NCBI GenBank assembly: GCA_021106915.1
Contig: JAIOTH010000019.1
Span: forward strand, 1 to 39,734
Origin: a bacterium
GTDB taxonomy: Bacteria > Patescibacteriota > Patescibacteriia > UBA1558 > S5-K13
Direction: 5' to 3'
Length of the DNA: 39,734 bases
Shown one piece after another: positions 12,396 through 36,522 of this stretch. Made by a program: the position numbers and the translations under genes. Below the pieces are notes generated by a model that made no database searches, was not told the DNA's origin, and worked only from the letters and a program-made list of their open reading frames with translations. The first letter of the stretch is position 1, and each line of letters starts with the position of its first letter.

Positions 12396-15300
12396 TTACT
12401 TGTCTGCCGATAGGCAGGTAACAATATTCACAATCTTTCCCTTAATATAAATAAATTTAACAATTTCCTTGCCATCAATAAATCTCTGCACATTTTCTAA
12501 TCCTAAAATTTGTTTTTTTAAATCATCTTCGGAAATATCAACCTCTATTTCTAGAGTAGCTCGTAATTTTCCGTTAATTTGAATAGGTAAATTTATTTTA
12601 TCTTCTACAATTAATTTTTCATCATACTTTGGCCATTCTTGCCGACAAATAAATCCCTCGTTTCCCAATTTTTGCCAAATTTCTTCACAAATATGCGGAG
12701 CAAAAGCAGAAAGCATAATTAAATAAGAATCAACTAAAGTCTTGTCAGGACTGTTTAAAGAACTTAATATTTTTAAACAAACCATCAAAGAACTAATTGC
12801 TGTATTAAATCTAAAATTTTCAATATCTTCTGTAACTTTTTTAATTGTTTTGTGTAATATTGAAACAACTTGATTATTAGATTCATCACCATAATTAATG
12901 TCTGAAAAATATCTCCAATTCTTATCTAGAAATCTTCGCAAACCTTTAATACCATCTATATTCCAAGGTTTTGAGTCTTCTAAAGGACCCATAAACATTT
13001 CATACATTCGGAAACTATCCGCACCATATTCCTCAACGACTTCATCGGGATTTACGACATTACCTAAAGATTTACTCATTTTTTGACCATCCGTTCCCAT
13101 AATTAAACCTTGATTAATCAACTTTAAAAATGGTTCATCAAAATCCCCACCTTCGCCAAGGCTACGGTCGGCAGGCAAATATCCATTATCTCTCAAAACT
13201 TTAGTAAAAAATCTAGAATAAATTAAATGGCCAACAGCATGTTCAGTTCCACCGACGTAAGTATCAACTGGCATATATTTTTTAATCAAATCTTTAGCAC
13301 AAAATTCTTTTTCATTCTGAGAATCTAAATAACGATAATAATACCAAGAATTATCTACAAAACCATCCATAGTATCATGTTCCCTAATTGCTTCTCCACC
13401 ACATTTCGGACATTGCACATTCTTATTAAATTCTTTTGATAAAGCTAAAGGTGGCTGACCAGTTGGTCGAAAATCCTGAACATCATCAGGCAATAAAACT
13501 GGCAAATCTTTTTCTGGCACTGGCACAGCTCCACATTTTGGACAATGAATAATCGGAATTGGAGCTCCCCAATATCTTTGACGAGAAACTAACCAATCAC
13601 GAAGTTTATATTGTGTAGTTAATTTTCCACCAGCTTTTTTAGTAATTTTCTGCTGAGCTTTTTCTGAATCCATTCCATCAAATTCTTCGGAATTTATCAT
13701 TTTCCCCTGAGCTTCTGTGGCTCGAATTTTTTCTTCAATATCAGAAATAATTTCTGGCAACTCGAAAACACTAACCCTACTATCACTAATATTAATGTGT
13801 CCTTTATTTTTTAAAACTCTATATTCACCTGGTAATTTTTCCACTAATTGTTTCTGTTGCTTATCAGATGTGTAAGGATCATCATCAGAAAAATAAGCAT
13901 AAATTTTTTCTACATTTGATTTAATATTTTGATAATTTAATTGATAATCAGTAAATTTACGCAATATCTCAATCTGCTCTTTTGTAAAATTCTCTTTAAT
14001 ACTCTCTGTTCTAGTCTGATCATCAACCATAAATTCTGAAACTGGAGCTACTAAAAATAATTTATTAATTTTTATTTTCTGAGCTAAATGCTGAGCTGCA
14101 AAAGCTCCCATACTGTGACCAATTATAATATCATCTTCTGCAAAATCCTGAACTAATGATTCTAAAATCTTTAACCAATCTTTTAAAATTGGATTTTTAG
14201 TATCTGGTAAATCTGGAACTAAAACTTCATAATTTAATTTTTCTAACTCCTTCTTTAACCACGGAAACCAATCATCTTTACTAGTCGCCATAAAGCCATG
14301 AACGATTAAAACCTTAGTCTTTCGTTGAGATTGTACTACATCAATAATTGATAAATTAAATTTCTGAGCAAATTCAAAATCTCGTTGATCATGAGCTGGA
14401 ACACACATTATTGCTCCAGTTCCATAGGTAGCTAAAACATAATCAGAAATATATACTGGTAATTCTTTTCCATTAACTGGATTAATAGCTTTAATTCCTT
14501 TTAGCTCTACTCCAGTTTTATTTTTATTCAAATCAGTTCTTTCTAAGTCACTTTTTTTCTTAGTAGTTTCAATATATTTTTCTACTTCTGAAAAATTTTC
14601 GATGCTAATTTTTAATTCCTGAACTAATTGATGCTCGGGAGCTAAAACCATATAAGTTGCTCCATATAAAGTATCAGGTCGCGTAGTAAAAACTTTTATC
14701 CCTAACGCCTCTTCTGAGGTGGGGGGATTAATTATTTTAGGTAAAATTAATTCTTTTAAAACATTGGCTTGACACTCAAACTCTTTGAAAAAATCTTCTG
14801 CTGTATTTTCAAAAAATCTTTTTCCACTTACTTTAGAATAATATAAATTTTTCATTGGAAAATAAATATCCAAATCACCTGCTTGCTGATCAGTTAAAAT
14901 ATAATCTCTTCTATTTTTAATTTGTTGATGCTCTCCATTGGGATATAGAATTGTCCAAAAATCTTCATAATAAAATTCTTTTTCTCCACCATTCTTCTGA
15001 GCAATATTCTTATAAAATTCTAAAGCTTTTTCAGCAATTTCTTCTTGAGTCAAATTCTTTTCATCAACTCCTTTTAAACAAGACCTTTTTGGAGCTAAAG
15101 GATCGACTTCATCTTCATTGCTAAAAAATACAGCTGTATCCATAGACAAAACTGGTACATCATATTTTCCTTGATAAGGATCTGTCTTCTTTAAAGAATT
15201 TTCCCAAGCATCTTGACCATTTTCCTCTACATCAACATAATCCGGAACTTGTTCAATTTTAATTTGAGGATCAATTTTTTTAAATAATTTTTTTAATCTT

Positions 15301-16118
15301 TCTAATTTAGACTTATTCCCCGTCGCAAAATATATTTTTTTGGAATTTGGAATTTGGAATTTACCTGCCTGTCCGGTAGGCAGGGAATTTGTTTGAAATT
15401 TGTTATTTGTTATTTGGAATTTGATTTCTGCTCCTTCTGATTTCCCAATCCAATTCTTTTGCATTGTTTTTAAAGCATGAGACCATTCCAATTTGTCTAA
15501 TCCTTCTAAAAGTTCATCAGCATATTCTGTCACTTTAAAAAACCATTGTTTTAAATCTTTTTTAATCACTTCATTCTTGCAACGCTCACATTTTCCATCA
15601 ACAACTTGTTCGTTTGCTAAAACAGTCTGACAAGAGTCACACCAATTCACTGGAGCTTTTTTCTGATAAGCTAAATTATTCTTGTATAATAGAAGAAAAA
15701 ACCACTGCGACCATTTATAATAGCTAGGATCAGAAGTATTTATTTCTCGCTCCCAATCATAAGAAAATCCTAAACTTTTAATTTGTTTAGTAAAATTAAC
15801 AATGTTTTCCGCAGTACTCTTCTTAGGGTGCACGCCAATTTTAATCGCATAATTTTCCGCCGGCAAACCAAAAGCATCCCAACCCATTGGATGAATTACC
15901 TCATAATTATTCATTCGTAAATAACGAGAATAAATATCAGTAGCAGTATAACCCTCAGGATGACCAACATGTAACCCTGCTCCAGAAGGATAAGGAAACA
16001 TATCTAAAACATACTTTTTTTCTTTCTGAGAATTTTTGTCAACTTTAAAAACATGATCCTTTTCCCATTTATCTTGCCACTTTTTTTCTATTTTTTGATG
16101 ATTATAATTTTGTTCCAT
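12396..16118 (-). CDS. leuS: Leucyl-tRNA synthetase with two foreign domains inserted around the CP1 editing domain
   Basis: It has the class I HIGH motif (HVGHPEGY) and KMSKS motif (KMSKSLGN), the editing-domain blocks TTRPDTLYGATY and GTGAIMCVPAHDQRDFEFA, and the C-terminal tRNA-binding tail. It is 1240 aa, compared with ~860 aa in E. coli. Confidence 0.95.
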   Translation of the reverse strand: MEQNYNHQKIEKKWQDKWEKDHVFKVDKNSQKEKKYVLDMFPYPSGAGLHVGHPEGYTATDIYSRYLRMNNYEVIHPMGWDAFGLPAENYAIKIGVHPKKSTAENIVNFTKQIKSLGFSYDWEREINTSDPSYYKWSQWFFLLLYKNNLAYQKKAPVNWCDSCQTVLANEQVVDGKCERCKNEVIKKDLKQWFFKVTEYADELLEGLDKLEWSHALKTMQKNWIGKSEGAEIKFQITNNKFQTNSLPTGQAGKFQIPNSKKIYFATGNKSKLERLKKLFKKIDPQIKIEQVPDYVDVEENGQDAWENSLKKTDPYQGKYDVPVLSMDTAVFFSNEDEVDPLAPKRSCLKGVDEKNLTQEEIAEKALEFYKNIAQKNGGEKEFYYEDFWTILYPNGEHQQIKNRRDYILTDQQAGDLDIYFPMKNLYYSKVSGKRFFENTAEDFFKEFECQANVLKELILPKIINPPTSEEALGIKVFTTRPDTLYGATYMVLAPEHQLVQELKISIENFSEVEKYIETTKKKSDLERTDLNKNKTGVELKGIKAINPVNGKELPVYISDYVLATYGTGAIMCVPAHDQRDFEFAQKFNLSIIDVVQSQRKTKVLIVHGFMATSKDDWFPWLKKELEKLNYEVLVPDLPDTKNPILKDWLKILESLVQDFAEDDIIIGHSMGAFAAQHLAQKIKINKLFLVAPVSEFMVDDQTRTESIKENFTKEQIEILRKFTDYQLNYQNIKSNVEKIYAYFSDDDPYTSDKQQKQLVEKLPGEYRVLKNKGHINISDSRVSVFELPEIISDIEEKIRATEAQGKMINSEEFDGMDSEKAQQKITKKAGGKLTTQYKLRDWLVSRQRYWGAPIPIIHCPKCGAVPVPEKDLPVLLPDDVQDFRPTGQPPLALSKEFNKNVQCPKCGGEAIREHDTMDGFVDNSWYYYRYLDSQNEKEFCAKDLIKKYMPVDTYVGGTEHAVGHLIYSRFFTKVLRDNGYLPADRSLGEGGDFDEPFLKLINQGLIMGTDGQKMSKSLGNVVNPDEVVEEYGADSFRMYEMFMGPLEDSKPWNIDGIKGLRRFLDKNWRYFSDINYGDESNNQVVSILHKTIKKVTEDIENFRFNTAISSLMVCLKILSSLNSPDKTLVDSYLIMLSAFAPHICEEIWQKLGNEGFICRQEWPKYDEKLIVEDKINLPIQINGKLRATLEIEVDISEDDLKKQILGLENVQRFIDGKEIVKFIYIKGKIVNIVTCLSADK
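13704..14333 (-). other. Alpha/beta serine hydrolase (YdeN/RBBP9-like) domain inserted in LeuRS (aa ~596-805)
   Basis: KVLIVHGFMATSKDDWFPWLKKELEKLNYEVLVPDLP is followed by the nucleophile elbow GHSMG, then FSDDDPY (Asp) and NKGHIN (His). The insert lies between HDQRDFEFAQKFNLSIIDVV and the KLRDWLVSRQRYWG block. Confidence 0.75.
14748..15341 (-). other. ITPase/Ham1/RdgB-like domain inserted in LeuRS (aa ~260-457)
   Basis: KIYFATGNKSKLERLKKLF matches the family motif ATGNxxKxxE. EENGQDAWENSLKK parallels RdgB EETGLTFIENAILKA. PVLSMDTAVF parallels PAIADDSGLAV. The insert lies between the GAEIKFQI and IKVFTTRPDT blocks, which are ~10 aa apart in E. coli LeuRS. Confidence 0.7.
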
Positions 16119-16215
16119 ATATACTAATGATACGAATTAAATGATACTAATATACTAATGATACGAATTATGTGGAAATACACAAATAATCCAAATCGAG
16201 CTGAACTCAAAGTAT
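16119..16215. repeat. ATTAGTAT/ATTCGTAT-word repeat abutting the leuS start codon, plus a decayed palindromic core
   Basis: The coding strand reads ...gtatcatttaattcgtatcattagtatatATG. The core remnant aatcgagctgaactcaaag lies at ~16194..16215. Confidence 0.8.
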
Positions 16216-20005: not shown

Positions 20006-20950
20006 TTATAATCCCTTAATCACATCTTTCAATTTCTCTGGCAATTCAATCTCAAAAACCTGCACCTCTCCATCTAAATCTATAAATTCTAAATGATAAG
20101 CATGTAAGAATATTCTATTTAAATCAAACTTATCTTTACATCCTTTAATATTATATAAATCATCTCCAGCAACTGGATGACTAATTGCTTTTAGATGAGC
20201 TCTGATCTGATGAGTTCGACCAGTCTTAATTTGAATATTTAATAAAGTATAGTGACTAAATGATTGTTTTACTTCCCATAAAGTTAAAGCTTCTTTAGCT
20301 TCTAAATTACCACCCTTGGCTACCATTTTACCAGATCTTTTAGAACGAGCTATGGGAAAATCTATTTCTCCTTCATGATCTGTCATTTTTCCATGAACTA
20401 AAGCTAGATACTTTTTAACAATGCTTCTATTTTTAAATTGAGATTTTAAATGGCTAAATATTTTTTGATTCAAAGCCACTACCATCAATCCTGAAACTTT
20501 TTTATCCAAACGATGTACTATGCCTGGTCTAAACTCTGGGTTGTCACCTACTGTTTTGATTTGAGGATATTTCTTAATTAAATAATCAACCAGAGTATAT
20601 TCTTGAACATTCTCTGCTGGATGAACTATCAAACCAGCTGGCTTTTCTAAAACTAAATAATTATCAGTTGCTTTGATTATTCTAATAGTCTTTTCCATCT
20701 CCATTAATTTTTTCCCACTGAGTAGAGGAAAATGTTTAGAAGATAGAGGAGGTTGTGAAATTTCTACCTTATCTCCCGCACTTAACCAATGATGCTTTTT
20801 TTTAATAATTGTACTGTTAACTTTAGCTTTTCCATCAACAACTAAACGCTGAATTTTAGATCTCGATAAATCAACTAATTTCTCAACTAAAAATTTATCC
20901 AACCTAACTTTGTCTTTTGGACATATAAATTTTTTCTTGGTATTTATCAT
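20006..20950 (-). CDS. rluD: RluA/RluD-family 23S rRNA pseudouridine synthase
   Basis: It has an N-terminal S4 domain (RLDKFLVEKL...SRSKIQRLV), the catalytic motif HRLDKKVSGLMVVA, and GRTHQIRAHL. Confidence 0.9.
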   Translation of the reverse strand: MINTKKKFICPKDKVRLDKFLVEKLVDLSRSKIQRLVVDGKAKVNSTIIKKKHHWLSAGDKVEISQPPLSSKHFPLLSGKKLMEMEKTIRIIKATDNYLVLEKPAGLIVHPAENVQEYTLVDYLIKKYPQIKTVGDNPEFRPGIVHRLDKKVSGLMVVALNQKIFSHLKSQFKNRSIVKKYLALVHGKMTDHEGEIDFPIARSKRSGKMVAKGGNLEAKEALTLWEVKQSFSHYTLLNIQIKTGRTHQIRAHLKAISHPVAGDDLYNIKGCKDKFDLNRIFLHAYHLEFIDLDGEVQVFEIELPEKLKDVIKGL

Positions 20951-21005
20951 ATATATATAAAATATCAGAGTTTAAATAAATAATCCACCCCTGGGGTGGT
21001 ATTTT

Positions 21006-21153
21006 AAGATTGATTTATTTGTATTGTATTAGTATAATTAGTATCATTAGTATATTAGTCAAGCTCAGCTCGATTAGTATTAAATTAGTATATTAGTATC
21101 ATACTATTCGTATCATTAGTATATTAGAATCATTTAATTAGTATCATTAGTAT
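21006..21153. repeat. ATTAGTAT-word repeat block with palindromic core, ending at the galU ATG
   Basis: The sequence is gtattgtattagtataattagtatcattagtatattagtcaagctcagctcgattagta...gaatcatttaattagtatcattagtatATG. About 70 nt (21079..21153) are nearly identical to 23911..23975. Confidence 0.85.
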
Positions 21154-22014
21154 ATGAAAATAACCAAGGCTGTCATTGCCGTAGCTGGATCAGGAACTAG
21201 ATTTTTACCAGCCACTAAATCCCAACCCAAAGAAATGCTACCTATTGTCGACAAACCGATTGTTCAATACGTGGTAGAAGAAATGGTTGAAGCTGGTATT
21301 ACAGATATTATCTTAGTTACTAGATGGGACAAAAAACCTTTAGAAGATCACTTTGATCGAAGTTTTGAATTAGAATATAATTTACAAAAAAATAAAAAAT
21401 TACAAAAGTTAGCTGAAATCAAAAAATTATCAAATATGGCTAACTTTATTTATATTCGCCAAAAAGGTCCTTATGGAAATGGCACTCCAGCTTTAAATGC
21501 CAAAAGTATTCTCGGTAATGAACCTTTTATTTATGCTTTTGGTGATGATCTAGTGAAATCTAAAATTTCTTTTACAAAACAATTATTAACTGCTTATCAA
21601 AAAAATCCCGGAATTATTTTAGGTGCACAAAAAGTTCCTAAGAATCAAGTAGATCGCTACGGAATCGTAAAATTAAAATCAAAGACTAAAAATGAAGTTA
21701 CTAAAATAATTGAGAAACCATCTATCCGAAAATCTCCTTCTCAATTAGCTACTTTTGGTCGTTATGTTTTAAACTCGGAAATTTTAAATTTTCTAGCTAA
21801 ACAAAAATTAGGTAAAGGTAGTGAATTGTGGCTAGTAGATGCCATTGAAGAATATATTAAAAACGGTGGAAAGGTTTATGTTCAAGAAATCGAAAACGGA
21901 AAATGGCTAACCACTGGCGATCCCTTAAATTATCTAAAAGCTACTATTGAATATGCTCTAGATCGAAAAGATTTAGCTGCTGATTTTAAAAAATATTTAA
22001 AAACTAAAATTTAA
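21154..22014 (+). CDS. galU: UTP--glucose-1-phosphate uridylyltransferase
   Basis: The N-terminal signature is KAVIAVAGSGTRFLPATKSQPKEMLPIVDKPIVQYVVEE. Confidence 0.9.
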   Translation: MKITKAVIAVAGSGTRFLPATKSQPKEMLPIVDKPIVQYVVEEMVEAGITDIILVTRWDKKPLEDHFDRSFELEYNLQKNKKLQKLAEIKKLSNMANFIYIRQKGPYGNGTPALNAKSILGNEPFIYAFGDDLVKSKISFTKQLLTAYQKNPGIILGAQKVPKNQVDRYGIVKLKSKTKNEVTKIIEKPSIRKSPSQLATFGRYVLNSEILNFLAKQKLGKGSELWLVDAIEEYIKNGGKVYVQEIENGKWLTTGDPLNYLKATIEYALDRKDLAADFKKYLKTKI

Positions 22015-22025
22015 AAATAAAAAAC

Positions 22026-23432
22026 ATGATTCAAAATAAATTATCTAACGGGGTAAATAAAAAAATAATTCTCAGTCTCTTATTTATATTCATAATTAGC
22101 TCTGGTTTTGGCTGTACTAAAAATCCCTTAGTTAAAAAAGACGTAGTTCTTAGACCAGTCAGTATTGAAATTTGGGGTGTTCACGAAAATGAAAATAATT
22201 TATCTCTTTTAATAGATGCTTTTAAAAAAATACATCCAACTGTCACCATTAAATATAAAAAATTTACTCCTCAAGAATTTACTAATGGTTATTATGAGGA
22301 TCAATTAATTAGTGAATGGGCCAAAGACAAAGGTCCAGATGCTTATTTCATTCCTAATAATTATATTGCCAAATTTAAAGATTTTATCACTCCTCTGCCA
22401 GCAAAAGTAAAACTTCCTTTTCGAGAAATAAAAACTTCTAAAATTGGTTATTTTTCTAAAACTGACGTAATAAATTACACTAAGGACTTACCAACCACTT
22501 CTTTAAAAAAACTAATTTCCAATTATCCAGAAGTAATCTACGATGATGTAGTAATTAATAATCAAATTCATGGTCTTCCTTTAAGCCTAGAAACTATTGG
22601 TCTCTTTTATAATCGGGATATTTTCAATAATGCTAATATTGCTCAAGCCCCTAAAAGTTGGGAGGAATTTAATGCTGCTGTAAAAAAAATTACTCAATTA
22701 AATTCGGATAACAAATTCATTCAATCTGGAACTGCCTTAGGAACAACAAATAATATTGATAATGCTTCGGAATTATTAATGCTTTTGATGATGCAAAACG
22801 GCGGTGATATAGTCAGTTCTAATAAAAGAATAAATTTTAATGACTATCAAAAAATTTCTCAAGCCATTAGTTTCTATAATGACTTTTCTAATCCAATTAA
22901 AGAAGTATATTCTTGGGATGAAAGTCAAAATAATTCTTTTGATGCTTTTAAGGCTGGTCAATTAGCAATGTTTTTTGGACTACCTTATCATATTGATGAA
23001 ATTAAAAAATCTGCCCCAGCTTTAAATTTTGGAATTGCCCCTGTTCCTCAAGTAAATAAATCCAATCCAGTGAACATAGCTAACTATTGGAATTTAGTTG
23101 TTTCTCACAAAAGTAAAAATAGTGACATAGCTTGGGGATTTATTGATTTTGCGACCCAAGAAAAAAATGTTAAAATATATTTAGAGAACTCGCAACGACC
23201 AACTGCTCTCCGAACTCTACAAAATGATTCTAGTCAAAACAATTTAAATACCGAACCTTTTGCTAATCAAATTCTCAGTGCCCGTTCTTGGTATCATGGT
23301 CTTTCTCCAGAAATAGCCAAAAATTATTTAAAAGAAATGTCTAATTATATTAAAAATAATTCTTTAAAACCTAGTGATCTCGAAGATGTTTTGGAAAATA
23401 CCGCTATTAAAATAAATCAGACAATTAATTAA
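22026..23432 (+). CDS. Extracellular solute-binding lipoprotein (ABC family-1, sugar-type)
   Basis: It has a signal peptide with lipobox SSGFGC. Its size and motifs match family-1 SBPs. No cognate permease or ATPase lies adjacent. Confidence 0.7.
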   Translation: MIQNKLSNGVNKKIILSLLFIFIISSGFGCTKNPLVKKDVVLRPVSIEIWGVHENENNLSLLIDAFKKIHPTVTIKYKKFTPQEFTNGYYEDQLISEWAKDKGPDAYFIPNNYIAKFKDFITPLPAKVKLPFREIKTSKIGYFSKTDVINYTKDLPTTSLKKLISNYPEVIYDDVVINNQIHGLPLSLETIGLFYNRDIFNNANIAQAPKSWEEFNAAVKKITQLNSDNKFIQSGTALGTTNNIDNASELLMLLMMQNGGDIVSSNKRINFNDYQKISQAISFYNDFSNPIKEVYSWDESQNNSFDAFKAGQLAMFFGLPYHIDEIKKSAPALNFGIAPVPQVNKSNPVNIANYWNLVVSHKSKNSDIAWGFIDFATQEKNVKIYLENSQRPTALRTLQNDSSQNNLNTEPFANQILSARSWYHGLSPEIAKNYLKEMSNYIKNNSLKPSDLEDVLENTAIKINQTIN

Positions 23433-23521: not shown

Positions 23522-23905
23522 ATGAAAAGCGATATAATTTACCCAAAATTATCTTATTTGGTTACTGGAATTTGTTTTCAAGTTCATAATGAGTTAAGAC
23601 GTTATGGAAAAGAAAAACAATATGGAGATTTATTGGAATCTAAATTTATAAACGAGAATATAAAATATAAAAGAGAATATTATATAATAAATACTAGAAA
23701 TATATTAGACTTTATAGTAGAAAATAAAATTATTCTCGAATTAAAAGCCAAAAAATTTATTACCAAAGAAGACTACTATCAAACTCAAAGATATTTACAA
23801 TCAACAAATTTAAAATTAGCATTATTAATTAATTTTAGAAATAAATATTTAAAACCAATTCGGATAGTAAAAATAGATACTAATTACAAATCTAAATTTA
23901 TTTAG
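23522..23905 (+). CDS. GxxExxY-family protein (PD-(D/E)XK nuclease-like fold)
   Basis: The 127-aa product reads YPKLSYLVTGICFQVHNELRRYGKEKQYGDLL...ILELKAKK...QTQRYLQSTNLKLALLINF, which is the typical family layout. Confidence 0.7.
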   Translation: MKSDIIYPKLSYLVTGICFQVHNELRRYGKEKQYGDLLESKFINENIKYKREYYIINTRNILDFIVENKIILELKAKKFITKEDYYQTQRYLQSTNLKLALLINFRNKYLKPIRIVKIDTNYKSKFI

Positions 23906-23980
23906 CCTACATTAGTATATTAGTATCATGCTATTCGTATCATTAGTATATTAGAATCATTTAATTAGTATCATTAATAT
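23906..23980. repeat. ATTAGTAT-word repeat, near-identical copy of the galU-proximal block
   Basis: The sequence is cattagtatattagtatcatgctattcgtatcattagtatattagaatcatttaattagtatcattaatat. It differs from 21079..21153 by only a few bases. Confidence 0.85.
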
Positions 23981-24082
23981 ATTTATCCCGTTAGATAAAA
24001 CTAATTTATTTTTCAAAAAATAATATAAAAAATTAAGCTAAATTAAAAATATGAATATCCTTACAAATAATTATCTAATGGG

Positions 24083-25351
24083 ATGAAAAGAATATTACTC
24101 ACATTATTATTTAGTTTAATTATAATCTTTCCTGGGTTTGTGCAAGCTACTATTGGAAATGATTGCGAAACTGATATTAATTGCGGAGAAATGTGTGAAG
24201 AATGCGACGATGATTATCATAGTGATACTTATCAAAAATGCATACTTAAACAAAACGATCTGCTAGATTGTTATGGACCATGCCAAGAATGTATAAATAG
24301 TGGTGGACAAGGAACATGCTCATACTTTTCAGATTATGAGCAACACGGATGTGATGCTGGATTTATTTGTGGTAGTAGTAGTACCTGTGAAGAAGACGAA
24401 GGAGGTTGTCTATATGATGATCAATGTGGTACTTGTGAAGAATGTACAAATTTTGAATGTGTATTTAAAATTTCAGATCCTGATTGTAGTGGACCATGTG
24501 ATTACTGTGAAAGAGACGATTATGGAAGAGGTGCTTGCTTGCAAATCGTAGCTGGGTATCCATCAAGTGCTTGTGAAAATGGATATGTTTGTGGTGGTGG
24601 TAGTAATTGTATTACTGAATGTGCTTATCATGGCGGTGAATGCCAAGATTTAGCATGTTCATTTACTGAAAATATTGTAAAAGGCTGTGGAGATGAAGGC
24701 AATTTTTGTTGTAAAGACTATACCGGAGATACTTGTAGCGTCCCGTGTAGCATGTTTCCCTGTGAAGCACATGAAAATGAAGATACAGCTGAGAGCGCTT
24801 GCAGTGACCCAATGAAATATTGCTGTGTACCTAAAGATGAATGTACTGGTGGATCAAAAAAATTTACTATAACAGACACTTTAGATGGTTGCCCAGTTGG
24901 TTATAAGGAAGATCAAGACGCAACACTTAATTTACCTGATAACATGTATAATCAAATCTGTTGTCAAAAAAATGAAGATTACAAACCCAGTACTGTAGCC
25001 AATGTGGGAAAATTATTTGAAGGCATACCCTGCATAACAGACGGCAATTGTTCCACTGAAGACCTAGTTCAATTAGCAATTAATGTTTCTAAATTATTAA
25101 CTGGTTTTGTAGGAAGTGTAGCTTTATTATTTTTTATAATTGCTGGCGTGAAATTAATCTTTTCAGCTGGTAAAGAGGAAAGCGTTAAAAGTGCTAAAGA
25201 AATGATGGTGCAAACTATTATTGGTCTATTTATTTTTCTAGGAGCTTATTTAATTATTCTATTTTTACAAGATAATATTTTAGGAACTAAACAAAAATAT
25301 AGAATAGACAAAAAAGGTGCTTATAATAATGAATCACAATTCTGGACTTAA
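24083..25351 (+). CDS. Secreted 42-Cys repeat ectodomain fused to a C-terminal VirB2/TrbC-like (T4SS pilin-like) two-helix membrane domain
   Basis: Signal peptide MKRILLTLLFSLIIIFPGFVQA|T. Two ~75-aa tandem Cys repeats are followed by three modules each ending in CC (NFCCKD, KYCCVPKD, QICCQKNE). The C-terminus carries the pilin-like domain. Confidence 0.85.
   Translation: MKRILLTLLFSLIIIFPGFVQATIGNDCETDINCGEMCEECDDDYHSDTYQKCILKQNDLLDCYGPCQECINSGGQGTCSYFSDYEQHGCDAGFICGSSSTCEEDEGGCLYDDQCGTCEECTNFECVFKISDPDCSGPCDYCERDDYGRGACLQIVAGYPSSACENGYVCGGGSNCITECAYHGGECQDLACSFTENIVKGCGDEGNFCCKDYTGDTCSVPCSMFPCEAHENEDTAESACSDPMKYCCVPKDECTGGSKKFTITDTLDGCPVGYKEDQDATLNLPDNMYNQICCQKNEDYKPSTVANVGKLFEGIPCITDGNCSTEDLVQLAINVSKLLTGFVGSVALLFFIIAGVKLIFSAGKEESVKSAKEMMVQTIIGLFIFLGAYLIILFLQDNILGTKQKYRIDKKGAYNNESQFWT
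25025..25267 (+). other. T4SS-pilin-like (VirB2/TrbC, PF18895-type) domain
   Basis: IPCITDGNC...LVQLAINVSKLLTGFVGSVALLFFIIAGVKLIFSAGKEESVKSAKEMMVQTIIGLFIFLGAYLIILFL has two Cys, then TM1, then the loop motif AG-x5-SxG-x6-AK, then TM2. This matches the short CPR pilin-like proteins. The call rests on remembered family motifs, not on a search. Confidence 0.55.
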
Positions 25352-25457: not shown

Positions 25458-25748
25458 ATGAAACAATACTGTGTCTATATTTTAACAAATAAAAATAATA
25501 CTGTTTTATATATTGGAGTCACTAATAATTTATTAAGAAGAATAAGGGAACATAAAAATAAAAAATTCAGAGGTTTTACAAATAAATATAATGTTAATAA
25601 ATTAGTTTATTATGAAATTACTGATAATATTAATAGTGCTATTACTAGAGAAAAACAGTTAAAAAATTGGCGTCGTAAGTGGAAAATAGAATTAATTAAT
25701 GAATTCAATTCAGAATGGAAAGATTTGTTTCATGATTTGTTTAATTAA
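25458..25748 (+). CDS. GIY-YIG nuclease superfamily protein (UPF0213-like)
   Basis: YCVYILTNKNNTVLYIGVTNNLLRRIREHKN ... TREKQLKNW is the canonical GIY-YIG pattern. Confidence 0.85.
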   Translation: MKQYCVYILTNKNNTVLYIGVTNNLLRRIREHKNKKFRGFTNKYNVNKLVYYEITDNINSAITREKQLKNWRRKWKIELINEFNSEWKDLFHDLFN

Positions 25749-36480: not shown

Positions 36481-36522
36481 AATTAGTATATTAGTATCAA
36501 ATTATTAGTATCATTAGTATAT
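36481..36522. repeat. ATTAGTAT-word repeat abutting the cysteine desulfurase ATG
   Basis: The sequence is aattagtatattagtatcaaattattagtatcattagtatatATG. Confidence 0.85.

Follow-up and report, generated by a model that had tools for sequence, protein, structure and literature searches.

The 39,734-bp contig JAIOTH010000019.1, which was analysed entire and is the window referred to below, carries an intact open reading frame (ORF) for a protein of 422 amino acids whose exact entry in NCBI nr is MCD4704571.1, 'pilin [bacterium]'. Its C-terminal ~80 residues are a VirB2/TrbC-like T4SS_pilin hairpin (T4SS, type IV secretion system), and comparison of that hairpin with those of related genomes identifies the protein as the ortholog of the position-1, or 'lead', pilin of the pilin arrays of Patescibacteria. 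What makes it unusual in such company is the part in front of the hairpin. The protein contains exactly 42 Cys (10% of its residues), together with 10% Gly and 16% Asp plus Glu, and at its N-terminus MKR is followed by a hydrophobic core of 19 residues and by VQA and T, VQA being taken, on direct reading and hydropathy, as the end of a signal peptide. An earlier interpretation made from the letters of this stretch, the sequence-only reading, had proposed a 42-Cys ORF with a signal peptide ending at VQA and a ~290-residue Cys-rich repeat domain carried by a pilin module; the ORF, the Cys count, the VQA site and the exported repeat domain were all found. The features are collected in Table 1.

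Table 1. Features of the Cys-rich pilin gene and its neighbours in the window (aa, amino-acid residues of the 422-aa protein; AF2, AlphaFold2; SBP, solute-binding protein)
Feature	Coordinates	Strand	Basis or remark
SBP_bac_1 solute-binding lipoprotein gene, lipobox SGFGC	22026..23432	+	Pfam; conserved upstream partner of the lead pilin
PDDEXK_3 nuclease-family gene, between the SBP and pilin genes	23522..23905	+	Pfam
Two copies of an AT-rich promoter-/operator-like element (CATTAGTATATTAGWATCAT)	23910..23985	+	Upstream of the pilin gene
Cys-rich putative lead pilin, whole gene	24083..25351	+	Intact ORF, 422 codons; MCD4704571.1
Predicted Sec-type signal peptide, aa 1-22	24083..24148	+	Hydropathy scan, direct reading; AF2 helix 2-23
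Repeat R1, aa 24-103, 12 Cys	24152..24391	+	R1/R2 alignment
Repeat R2, aa 104-179, 12 Cys	24392..24619	+	R1/R2 alignment
Six-Cys module M3, aa 180-210, net acidic	24620..24712	+	Spacing C-x6-C-x4-C-x9-C-x6-CC
Six-Cys module M4, aa 218-248	24734..24826	+	Spacing C-x3-C-x4-C-x12-C-x6-CC
Last ectodomain module M5, aa 254-294, ends QICC	24842..24964	+	Alignable to P0002
Juxtamembrane Cys pair C317-x5-C323 (CITDGNC)	25031..25051	+	P0002 equivalent CMSNGNC
Pilin hairpin of VirB2 type, aa 325-401, two helices around the loop SAGKEES	25055..25285	+	PF18895, AF2
Short basic C-terminal tail, aa 402-422	25286..25348	+	Predicted outside the membrane
GIY-YIG nuclease-family gene, where relatives have short pilins #2 onward	25458..25748	+	Pfam; comparison with L001, L015 and L016

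How secure is the family assignment? Residues 326-392 match Pfam PF18895 (T4SS_pilin) with 32.0 bits, the gathering threshold being 26.6 (E = 1.4e-7). The match to PF04956 (TrbC/VirB2) is weak, at 18.8 bits below a cutoff of 27.9 (E = 0.0019), and in NCBIfam the protein has only a weak match, to a mycoplasma pilin-like family of integrative and conjugative elements. An AF2 run on the whole protein with a 67-row alignment gave a hairpin of two helices, residues 325-360 and 365-401, with a predicted local distance difference test (pLDDT) of 87-96, and a hydropathy scan has hydrophobic segments at about residues 338-364 and 374-398, around the loop SAGKEESVKSAKE. It was as a VirB2/TrbC-like pilin that the sequence-only reading had taken this C-terminal part, and the PF18895 score and the AF2 hairpin bear it out; its description of the domain in front as 'Cys-knot-like' is another matter and was not demonstrated, since the full model is confident in the signal peptide and the hairpin only and the ectodomain has pLDDT below 50. 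Foldseek with that full model returned generic helical hairpins, the top one an archaeal conjugation pilin at E = 0.77, which is not significant, and a search by sequence with the pilin-domain profile found no relatives among solved VirB2/TraA structures. The best 120 matches to the pilin profile are 100-149 residues long, in agreement with the earlier statement that the usual members are short, and at 422 residues the window protein exceeds the family size of a ~100-150-residue precursor. Among the 243 pilin-family proteins retrieved 98 are free of Cys.

The VirB2/TrbC/TraA conjugative pilins and the window protein are alike in having a leader, two hydrophobic helices and a short polar loop. 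They are probably alike also in topology. In F and T pili the subunit termini face outward, both mature ends of such pilins being outside the membrane, and the same is predicted for the window protein because it has a signal peptide and a Cys-rich N-terminal domain on one side of the hairpin, and because relatives have Cys-rich tails after helix 2 on the other side; such domains are present after helix 2 in P0002, L003 and P0210 (P and L numbers denote related proteins and loci). With all of this an arrangement with both ends of the hairpin outside the membrane fits. The contrasts are in size, ~100-150 residues for the conjugative pilins but 422 for the window protein with its 290-residue Cys-rich domain between leader and hairpin, in that T4SS genes are not adjacent to it, and in the replacement of the W-M motif of helix 1.

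The orthologs came from metagenome contigs and protein look-ups, and 17 related loci were fetched; the GTDB species representatives provided only distant long pilins (L003-L007), without close orthologs. Searching with the whole protein gave one relative, P0002, of 598 residues, which has 49% identity to the window protein over residues 270-408 (BLASTP) and a different, similarly built Cys-rich N-terminal domain plus a Cys-rich C-terminal tail. On L001 eight PF18895 genes stand in a row, of which P0002 is the foremost; it lies directly 3' of an SBP_bac_1 lipoprotein gene, and upstream of it are a GalU-like NTP_transferase gene and that SBP_bac_1 gene, the same upstream genes as in the window. 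The layout shared by the relatives is an SBP gene, a longer Cys-bearing pilin and 3-12 short pilins. Lead pilins of 270 (L003), 197 (L013) and 180 residues (L017) are each followed by 3 short ones, those of 194 (L008), 192 (L015) and 190 residues (L016) by 7, and that of 201 residues in L010/L011 by 11-12, the figure for L010 being taken from a separate count that has one more. SBP is directly 5' of the pilin genes in L001, L003, L004, L008, L010, L012, L013, L015, L016 and L017, and is upstream of them in every related locus with upstream sequence. In L015 and L016 synteny with the window takes in LeuRS ... LysM-M23 ... Gmk-RluD and NTP_transferase-SBP-lead pilin.

When all hairpins were aligned to one hidden Markov model and best matches between genomes taken, the window hairpin had pilin #1 as its best match in 7 of 8 loci. 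Its identity to pilin #1 of L001, L008, L015 and L016 is 56-67%, as against 21-36% to the pilins at other positions. In most comparisons between these four loci pilins #1-#4 and #6-#8 pair position for position at ~42-86% identity; paralogs within one genome have at most 31-61%. Because the hairpin matches pair by position, the arrays are taken to be ancient sets of differentiated subunits with the window protein as the position-1 ortholog, and this argues against their being interchangeable antigenic variants. A profile search with the lead pilins brought in a populated subfamily with best matches of 185-203 residues, and across loci their usual length is 180-203; among the sequences listed for the subfamily, none but the window protein and P0002 exceeds 203 residues. 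A Cys-containing extension is present in all the fetched lead-pilin orthologs, typically with 6-11 Cys in the 60-90 residues N-terminal to the hairpin, and of the 14 best lead-pilin matches fetched, 10 have a CC doublet ahead of the hairpin (e.g., NCCEK, QCCEE); L008/P0125, P0131 and P0148 lack one. In the window protein the extension ends with QICC, to which C-x5-C is added before helix 1.

Other CPR (candidate phyla radiation) lineages, labelled Woesebacteria or Pacebacteria, have a separate group of ~400-residue pilins (L005 8984-10213, L006, L007 and L014), in which an unrelated ~310-residue N-terminal domain with 12-14 Cys is present and a second pilin of 180-250 residues follows.

What manner of pilin, then, is the window protein? 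The sequence-only reading had envisaged display of the disulfide-rich domain along a filament, that is, a decorated major pilin, every subunit of a VirB2-like filament carrying the 290-residue Cys-rich domain. The pilin-family hairpin with both termini predicted outside, as in F and T pili, would suit this, as would its being the only pilin gene in the contig. However, the protein is the ortholog of one differentiated member among the 4-12 pilins of an array and not of a sole or dominant one; the 290-residue domain has ~4 times the hairpin's mass and, by a rough uncomputed geometric estimate, could be accommodated only with difficulty at the subunit density of known conjugative pili; and the range of ectodomain length among the orthologs, ~55 to ~390 residues, would be more easily tolerated at the end of a filament than within its lattice. 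Display along a filament is now considered decidedly unlikely, and the earlier proposal has been revised in favour of a subunit that is minor or specialised, or of a protein anchored on its own, either of which fits better. The reading preferred here, to which we give about an even chance, is that of a specialised position-1 pilin which presents a disulfide-rich binding domain, in low copy and with a role in host contact.

The ectodomain merits attention in its own right. Its first half consists of two ~78-residue tandem repeats, R1 (residues 24-103) and R2 (104-181 in the alignment), whose alignment score of 119 was reached by none of 500 shuffles (41 +/- 7.7; z = 10.2). The Cys pattern of R1 is C-x5-C-x3-C-x2-C ... 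C-x3-C-x2-C ... C-x5-C-x5-C. That there are two tandem repeats was well perceived from the sequence, though the spacing is not wholly shared, R1 having x3 and R2 x2 for its second gap. At the DNA level the similarity of the repeats is fragmentary, and the duplication is therefore old. All three of the CC-ending segments that had been taken as modules (NFCCKD, KYCCVPKD and QICCQKNE) are present; what did not stand is their kinship, which is weak for M3 and M4 (z = 3.2) and absent for M5, which resembles neither. The three CC doublets as a signal in themselves were rejected, since at 10% Cys at least 3 doublets occur in shuffles with P = 0.93. The non-random regularity is instead the six-Cys framework ending in CC, at residues 180-210 and 218-248, and it recurs in homologs. 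The protein has been deposited once more, as P0123 (ENA, from a contig of 2.75 kb), with C180R (codon 24620-24622) as the sole difference; the substitution removes the first Cys of M3 and may reflect a polymorphism or else a mistake of assembly or sequencing.

Between the window and L001 identity is 80% for NTP_transferase, 64-66% for the hairpin and 51% for the SBP, and in the ectodomain the last module alone aligns (M5 with P0002). A phmmer search with residues 24-316 against 1.84 billion cluster representatives returned only the protein itself, a PDB sequence search with the ectodomain gave a chance-level match only, and Pfam and NCBIfam had no match over it. By eye P0002 nevertheless shares both building blocks, the D-x-x-C-x2-C-x2-C repeats and the six-Cys CC modules, from which it appears that the ectodomain grows and diverges by module turnover with its Cys frameworks kept. 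To judge from the compared sequences it is the ectodomain that is hypervariable and expandable and the hairpin that is conserved.

The spacing of M3 has a familiar ring. C-x6-C-x4-C-x9-C-x6-CC is the canonical spacing of beta-defensins, which have this six-Cys framework in common with M3, and their range pattern is C-x4-8-C-x3-5-C-x9-13-C-x4-7-CC; M3 (6,4,9,6,0) fits the latter and M4 (3,4,12,6,0) is just outside. This opens the way to a quite different explanation, that the protein carries defensin-like peptides or is their precursor, its six-Cys CC modules being units of beta-defensin fold that are antimicrobial or membrane-active against the host bacterium, whether released or in place. When the ectodomain was shuffled the range pattern occurred in 1.25% and the exact M3 spacing in 0 of 20,000 shuffles; P0002 has two matches to the range pattern (P = 2e-4), and the six-Cys CC framework recurs in P0002, P0183 and P0210. 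An AF2 model of the module from an 8-row alignment has pLDDT 76 and a short N-terminal helix plus strands, and Foldseek matched it in the PDB to 14 structures, every one a beta-defensin (TM 0.46-0.60, root-mean-square deviation 1.7-3.4), but with E = 1.4-7.8, all above 1; the model may simply reflect learned Cys spacing. The module profile found one PDB chain, a 39-residue carboxypeptidase inhibitor (E = 0.012), and in Pfam Defensin_beta is the top match for M3 (E = 0.014), with a score of 15.8 bits where the gathering cutoff is 21. Among nine shuffles of M3 in which Cys was preserved, one matched Defensin_beta equally (15.4 bits, E = 0.018), so this match was rejected as independent evidence, and all of the defensin evidence reduces to Cys spacing. 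Furthermore, M3 is acidic, with 5 Asp/Glu and 1 Lys, and the modules as a whole are strongly acidic whereas defensins are cationic, and processing sites are not evident. A peptide precursor is on these grounds highly improbable. Trans-defensins have been described from vertebrates and some invertebrates, and from bacteria only cis-defensins have been reported (PMC11561630). Unlike the former, M3 is part of a large bacterial membrane protein and scores below threshold, and its likeness to beta-defensins is probably best regarded as an intriguing resemblance and not as membership. It is unlikely, at somewhat better odds than a filament decorated throughout, that the six-Cys CC modules are genuine units of the beta-defensin (trans-defensin) fold which build the host-contact domain of the position-1 pilin of a T4SS-like apparatus. 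If that were true, bacteria would have their first described fold of the trans-defensin type, and an essential CPR surface machine of uncharacterised structure would have its missing adhesin or tip subunit identified.

The surroundings of the gene bear on whether the window protein works with other pilins at all. In relatives the SBP-to-lead-pilin junction is 0-30 nt, and in the window a PDDEXK_3 gene is inserted there, for which none of the fetched loci has a counterpart. On the 3' side relatives have pilins #2-#8 and then DUF2079 plus GT2, where the window has the GIY-YIG gene and then LepA. The two nuclease-family genes thus sit exactly at both junctions where synteny with the relatives breaks, which is compatible with a rearrangement, mediated by mobile or selfish genes, that removed the short pilins. 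No second pilin-family ORF was found in the contig. Nor were VirB4, VirB6, VirD4 and VirB3/PrgI, and the earlier statement that no other T4SS genes are present in the window is upheld for VirB4, VirB6 and VirD4.

Such isolation is what would be expected of a non-polymerising surface protein, whose hairpin is a two-helix anchor for a stand-alone Cys-rich adhesin or wall-associated protein that needs neither pilus nor T4SS. The sole pilin-family ORF of a contig in which T4SS genes were not found, with nuclease-family genes between it and the genes ancestrally next to it and with its own promoter-like element, is in accord with this, as is the absence of the W-M-T motif of the short pilins. So too is the lead pilin of L003 (9684-10493), whose Cys-rich C-terminal tail has a near-threshold PG_binding_1-like match (22.1 bits, cutoff 23; E = 1.8e-4) that suggests wall anchoring and not filament packing. 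Against it, in every sufficiently sequenced related locus the ortholog stands first, with 3-12 further pilins behind it in conserved order, from which co-function of the lead pilin with the short pilins is argued; the hairpin, at 56-67% identity, is strongly conserved relative to the ectodomain; and an array and a T4SS may lie on other contigs of the source genome. On balance a free-standing surface anchor is rather unlikely, though deserving of more weight than either the decorated filament or the defensin carrier.

How might a specialised position-1 pilin operate? The Sec signal peptide would export the ~290-residue acidic ectodomain with its 40 Cys, comprising the two R repeats and the six-Cys CC modules, and the C-terminal VirB2-type hairpin would insert with both ends outside the membrane. 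The Cys extension of a lead pilin, normally ~60-90 residues, has been enlarged in the window protein by gain of modules. Through its hairpin the protein could enter a pilin assembly, or be placed at the membrane base of one, in few copies and at one end, and the disulfide-stabilised, fast-diverging ectodomain would be the contact or recognition module for the surface of the host cell. This role would be otherwise unfilled if, as it seems, Patescibacterial T4SSs are without VirB5- or PrgB-type adhesins. In the source genome, where the gene is cut off from the rest of the array and has a promoter-like element of its own, the protein may act alone.

Published work provides both encouragement and restraint. 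Arrays of 2-11 VirB2-like genes are widespread in Patescibacteria and PrgB-like adhesins were not detected (PMC12102498), and the pilin array is essential in Southlakia (PMC10633639; PMC12857230). The T4SS locus of Southlakia epibionticum and the other Patescibacterial arrays share with the window protein both its family and its phylum-level group. In published accounts the arrays are described as sets of small divergent pilins, possibly for variation (PMC12102498), whereas the window contig is without an array; in relatives the pilin arrays are not adjacent to virB4. On the side of restraint, a pilus has yet to be observed for a T4SS of Patescibacteria (PMC12857230), and for PF18895 proteins polymerisation is unproven. 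Several of our own results weigh in the same direction. Besides the lack of T4SS genes and of a second pilin in the contig, VirB4, VirB6 and VirD4 were not found within ~10 kb in L001, L015, L016 and L017, because of which the tie to a T4SS comes by way of family membership only. W-M-T, nearly invariant in short pilins, reads L-I-F in the window hairpin; of the motif G-x-x-W-M-T-[SA]-G-G-N-E-E-K the window protein has kept the Gly residues and E-E and replaced W-M-T, where the P0002, L008 and L009 orthologs read M-I-F. A binding function for the ectodomain, to most of which AF2 gives no assignable fold, is purely what we infer.

Are there precedents for such a subunit? Tip or minor subunits occur as VirB5 on T pili and as minor pilins with PilY1/PilC on type IV pili. 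In common with these there would be one specialised subunit per cluster, at the edge of the pilin genes, with an extra binding domain and a proposed place at the filament end; sequence and fold are unrelated, and in the window protein it is a VirB2-type hairpin that bears the extra domain, as a direct fusion. Further afield, the variant-specific surface proteins of Giardia have ~10-12% Cys, CxxC motifs and a hypervariable ectodomain on a conserved C-terminal membrane anchor. Here there is analogy only, as the sequences are unrelated, the anchor of the window protein is a pilin hairpin and there is no sign of variant switching.

The promoter-like element upstream of the pilin gene is one of a set. 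Its core, CATTAGTATATTAGWATCAT, is made of ATTAGTAT 8-mers, and 7 copies are present in the window where 0 are expected. The sites are 8956-8975 (-), 16141-16160 (-), 21083-21133 (+), 23910-23960 (+) and 36481-36500 (+), always in the orientation of the gene and just 5' of a transcription unit, the units being the operon of the TSP3-like and giant proteins, LeuRS, NTP_transferase-SBP, the pilin and IscS. A conserved block of ~50 nt with the element reaches the ATG in 4 of the 5 units. The copy at the pilin gene nearly duplicates that of NTP_transferase-SBP over ~75 nt, and is ~100 nt (end of the block) or ~120 nt (second core copy) from the ATG. An exact match was found in none of the 17 fetched loci, and a scan for promoter and terminator consensus sequences around the pilin gene gave the same as shuffles. 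The element could represent a promoter/leader cassette used repeatedly, or else an operator.

At ~20950-21154, 3 kb from the pilin gene, GC skew passes from negative to positive and gene orientation from - to +. This switch at ~21 kb could mark a replication origin or could simply follow the coding strand; dnaA was not found in the window, and T4SS genes have been reported near ori in Patescibacteria (PMC12102498). The LeuRS gene (12396-16118, -) encodes 1240 residues, with a partial Ham1p_like segment inserted at residues 262-332 and a Ser_hydrolase / alpha-beta hydrolase domain at residues 603-778, after the editing domain, an inserted-domain architecture also recorded in L015 and L016.

At the contig end, positions 1-8135 (-) hold three consecutive large ORFs downstream of KsgA and a TSP3-repeat protein, namely one of 1218 residues with a signal peptide, one of 914 residues without, which begins 40 nt after the preceding stop, and a 564-residue fragment that runs off the contig. 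They are acidic, have 3-4% Cys and no Pfam match, and may be one split gene for a giant surface protein or an operon. Kinship of the pilin ectodomain with these giant proteins was rejected, there being no BLAST match at E < 0.2, no CC doublets and no CxxC, and the shared surface system that the sequence-only reading had suggested is accordingly not upheld.

What is new here? The PF18895 family, its arrays in Patescibacteria and the annotation of MCD4704571.1 as 'pilin' are already known. In the literature searched on Patescibacterial pilin arrays no description was found of a Cys-bearing lead-pilin subfamily, of position-specific orthology of array members, or of linkage to SBP genes and modular expansion of the ectodomain. 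The linkage to the gene for a solute-binding lipoprotein is tight, and in relatives extends to glycosyltransferase genes; it is an unexplained lead. Identity of the orphan SBP_bac_1 (within 21154-23432 in the window) between loci is as low as 25-35% and a GalU-like NTP_transferase often precedes it, and downstream of the arrays are DUF2079 plus GT2 (L001, L015 and L016) or PMT_2 (L003). Such a layout hints that pilins, solute binding and extracytoplasmic glycosylation may be functionally connected.

A large part of bacterial diversity belongs to the Patescibacteria, which seem to live fixed to host cells. In one genetically tractable species a T4SS-like system and a pilin array are essential, and the existence of a pilus, the target of contact and the number of pilins are unexplained (PMC10633639, PMC12857230, PMC12102498). 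To these matters the present comparison contributes in several ways. The arrays are ordered sets of position-specific orthologs and not of interchangeable variants, and their first member, distinct, Cys-bearing and fast-evolving, presents itself as the candidate for the end that makes contact or recognises, in a system where an adhesin has not been found. By module duplication this lead pilin can grow from ~190 to 422-598 residues, and it is able to persist where the rest of the array has gone from the locus.

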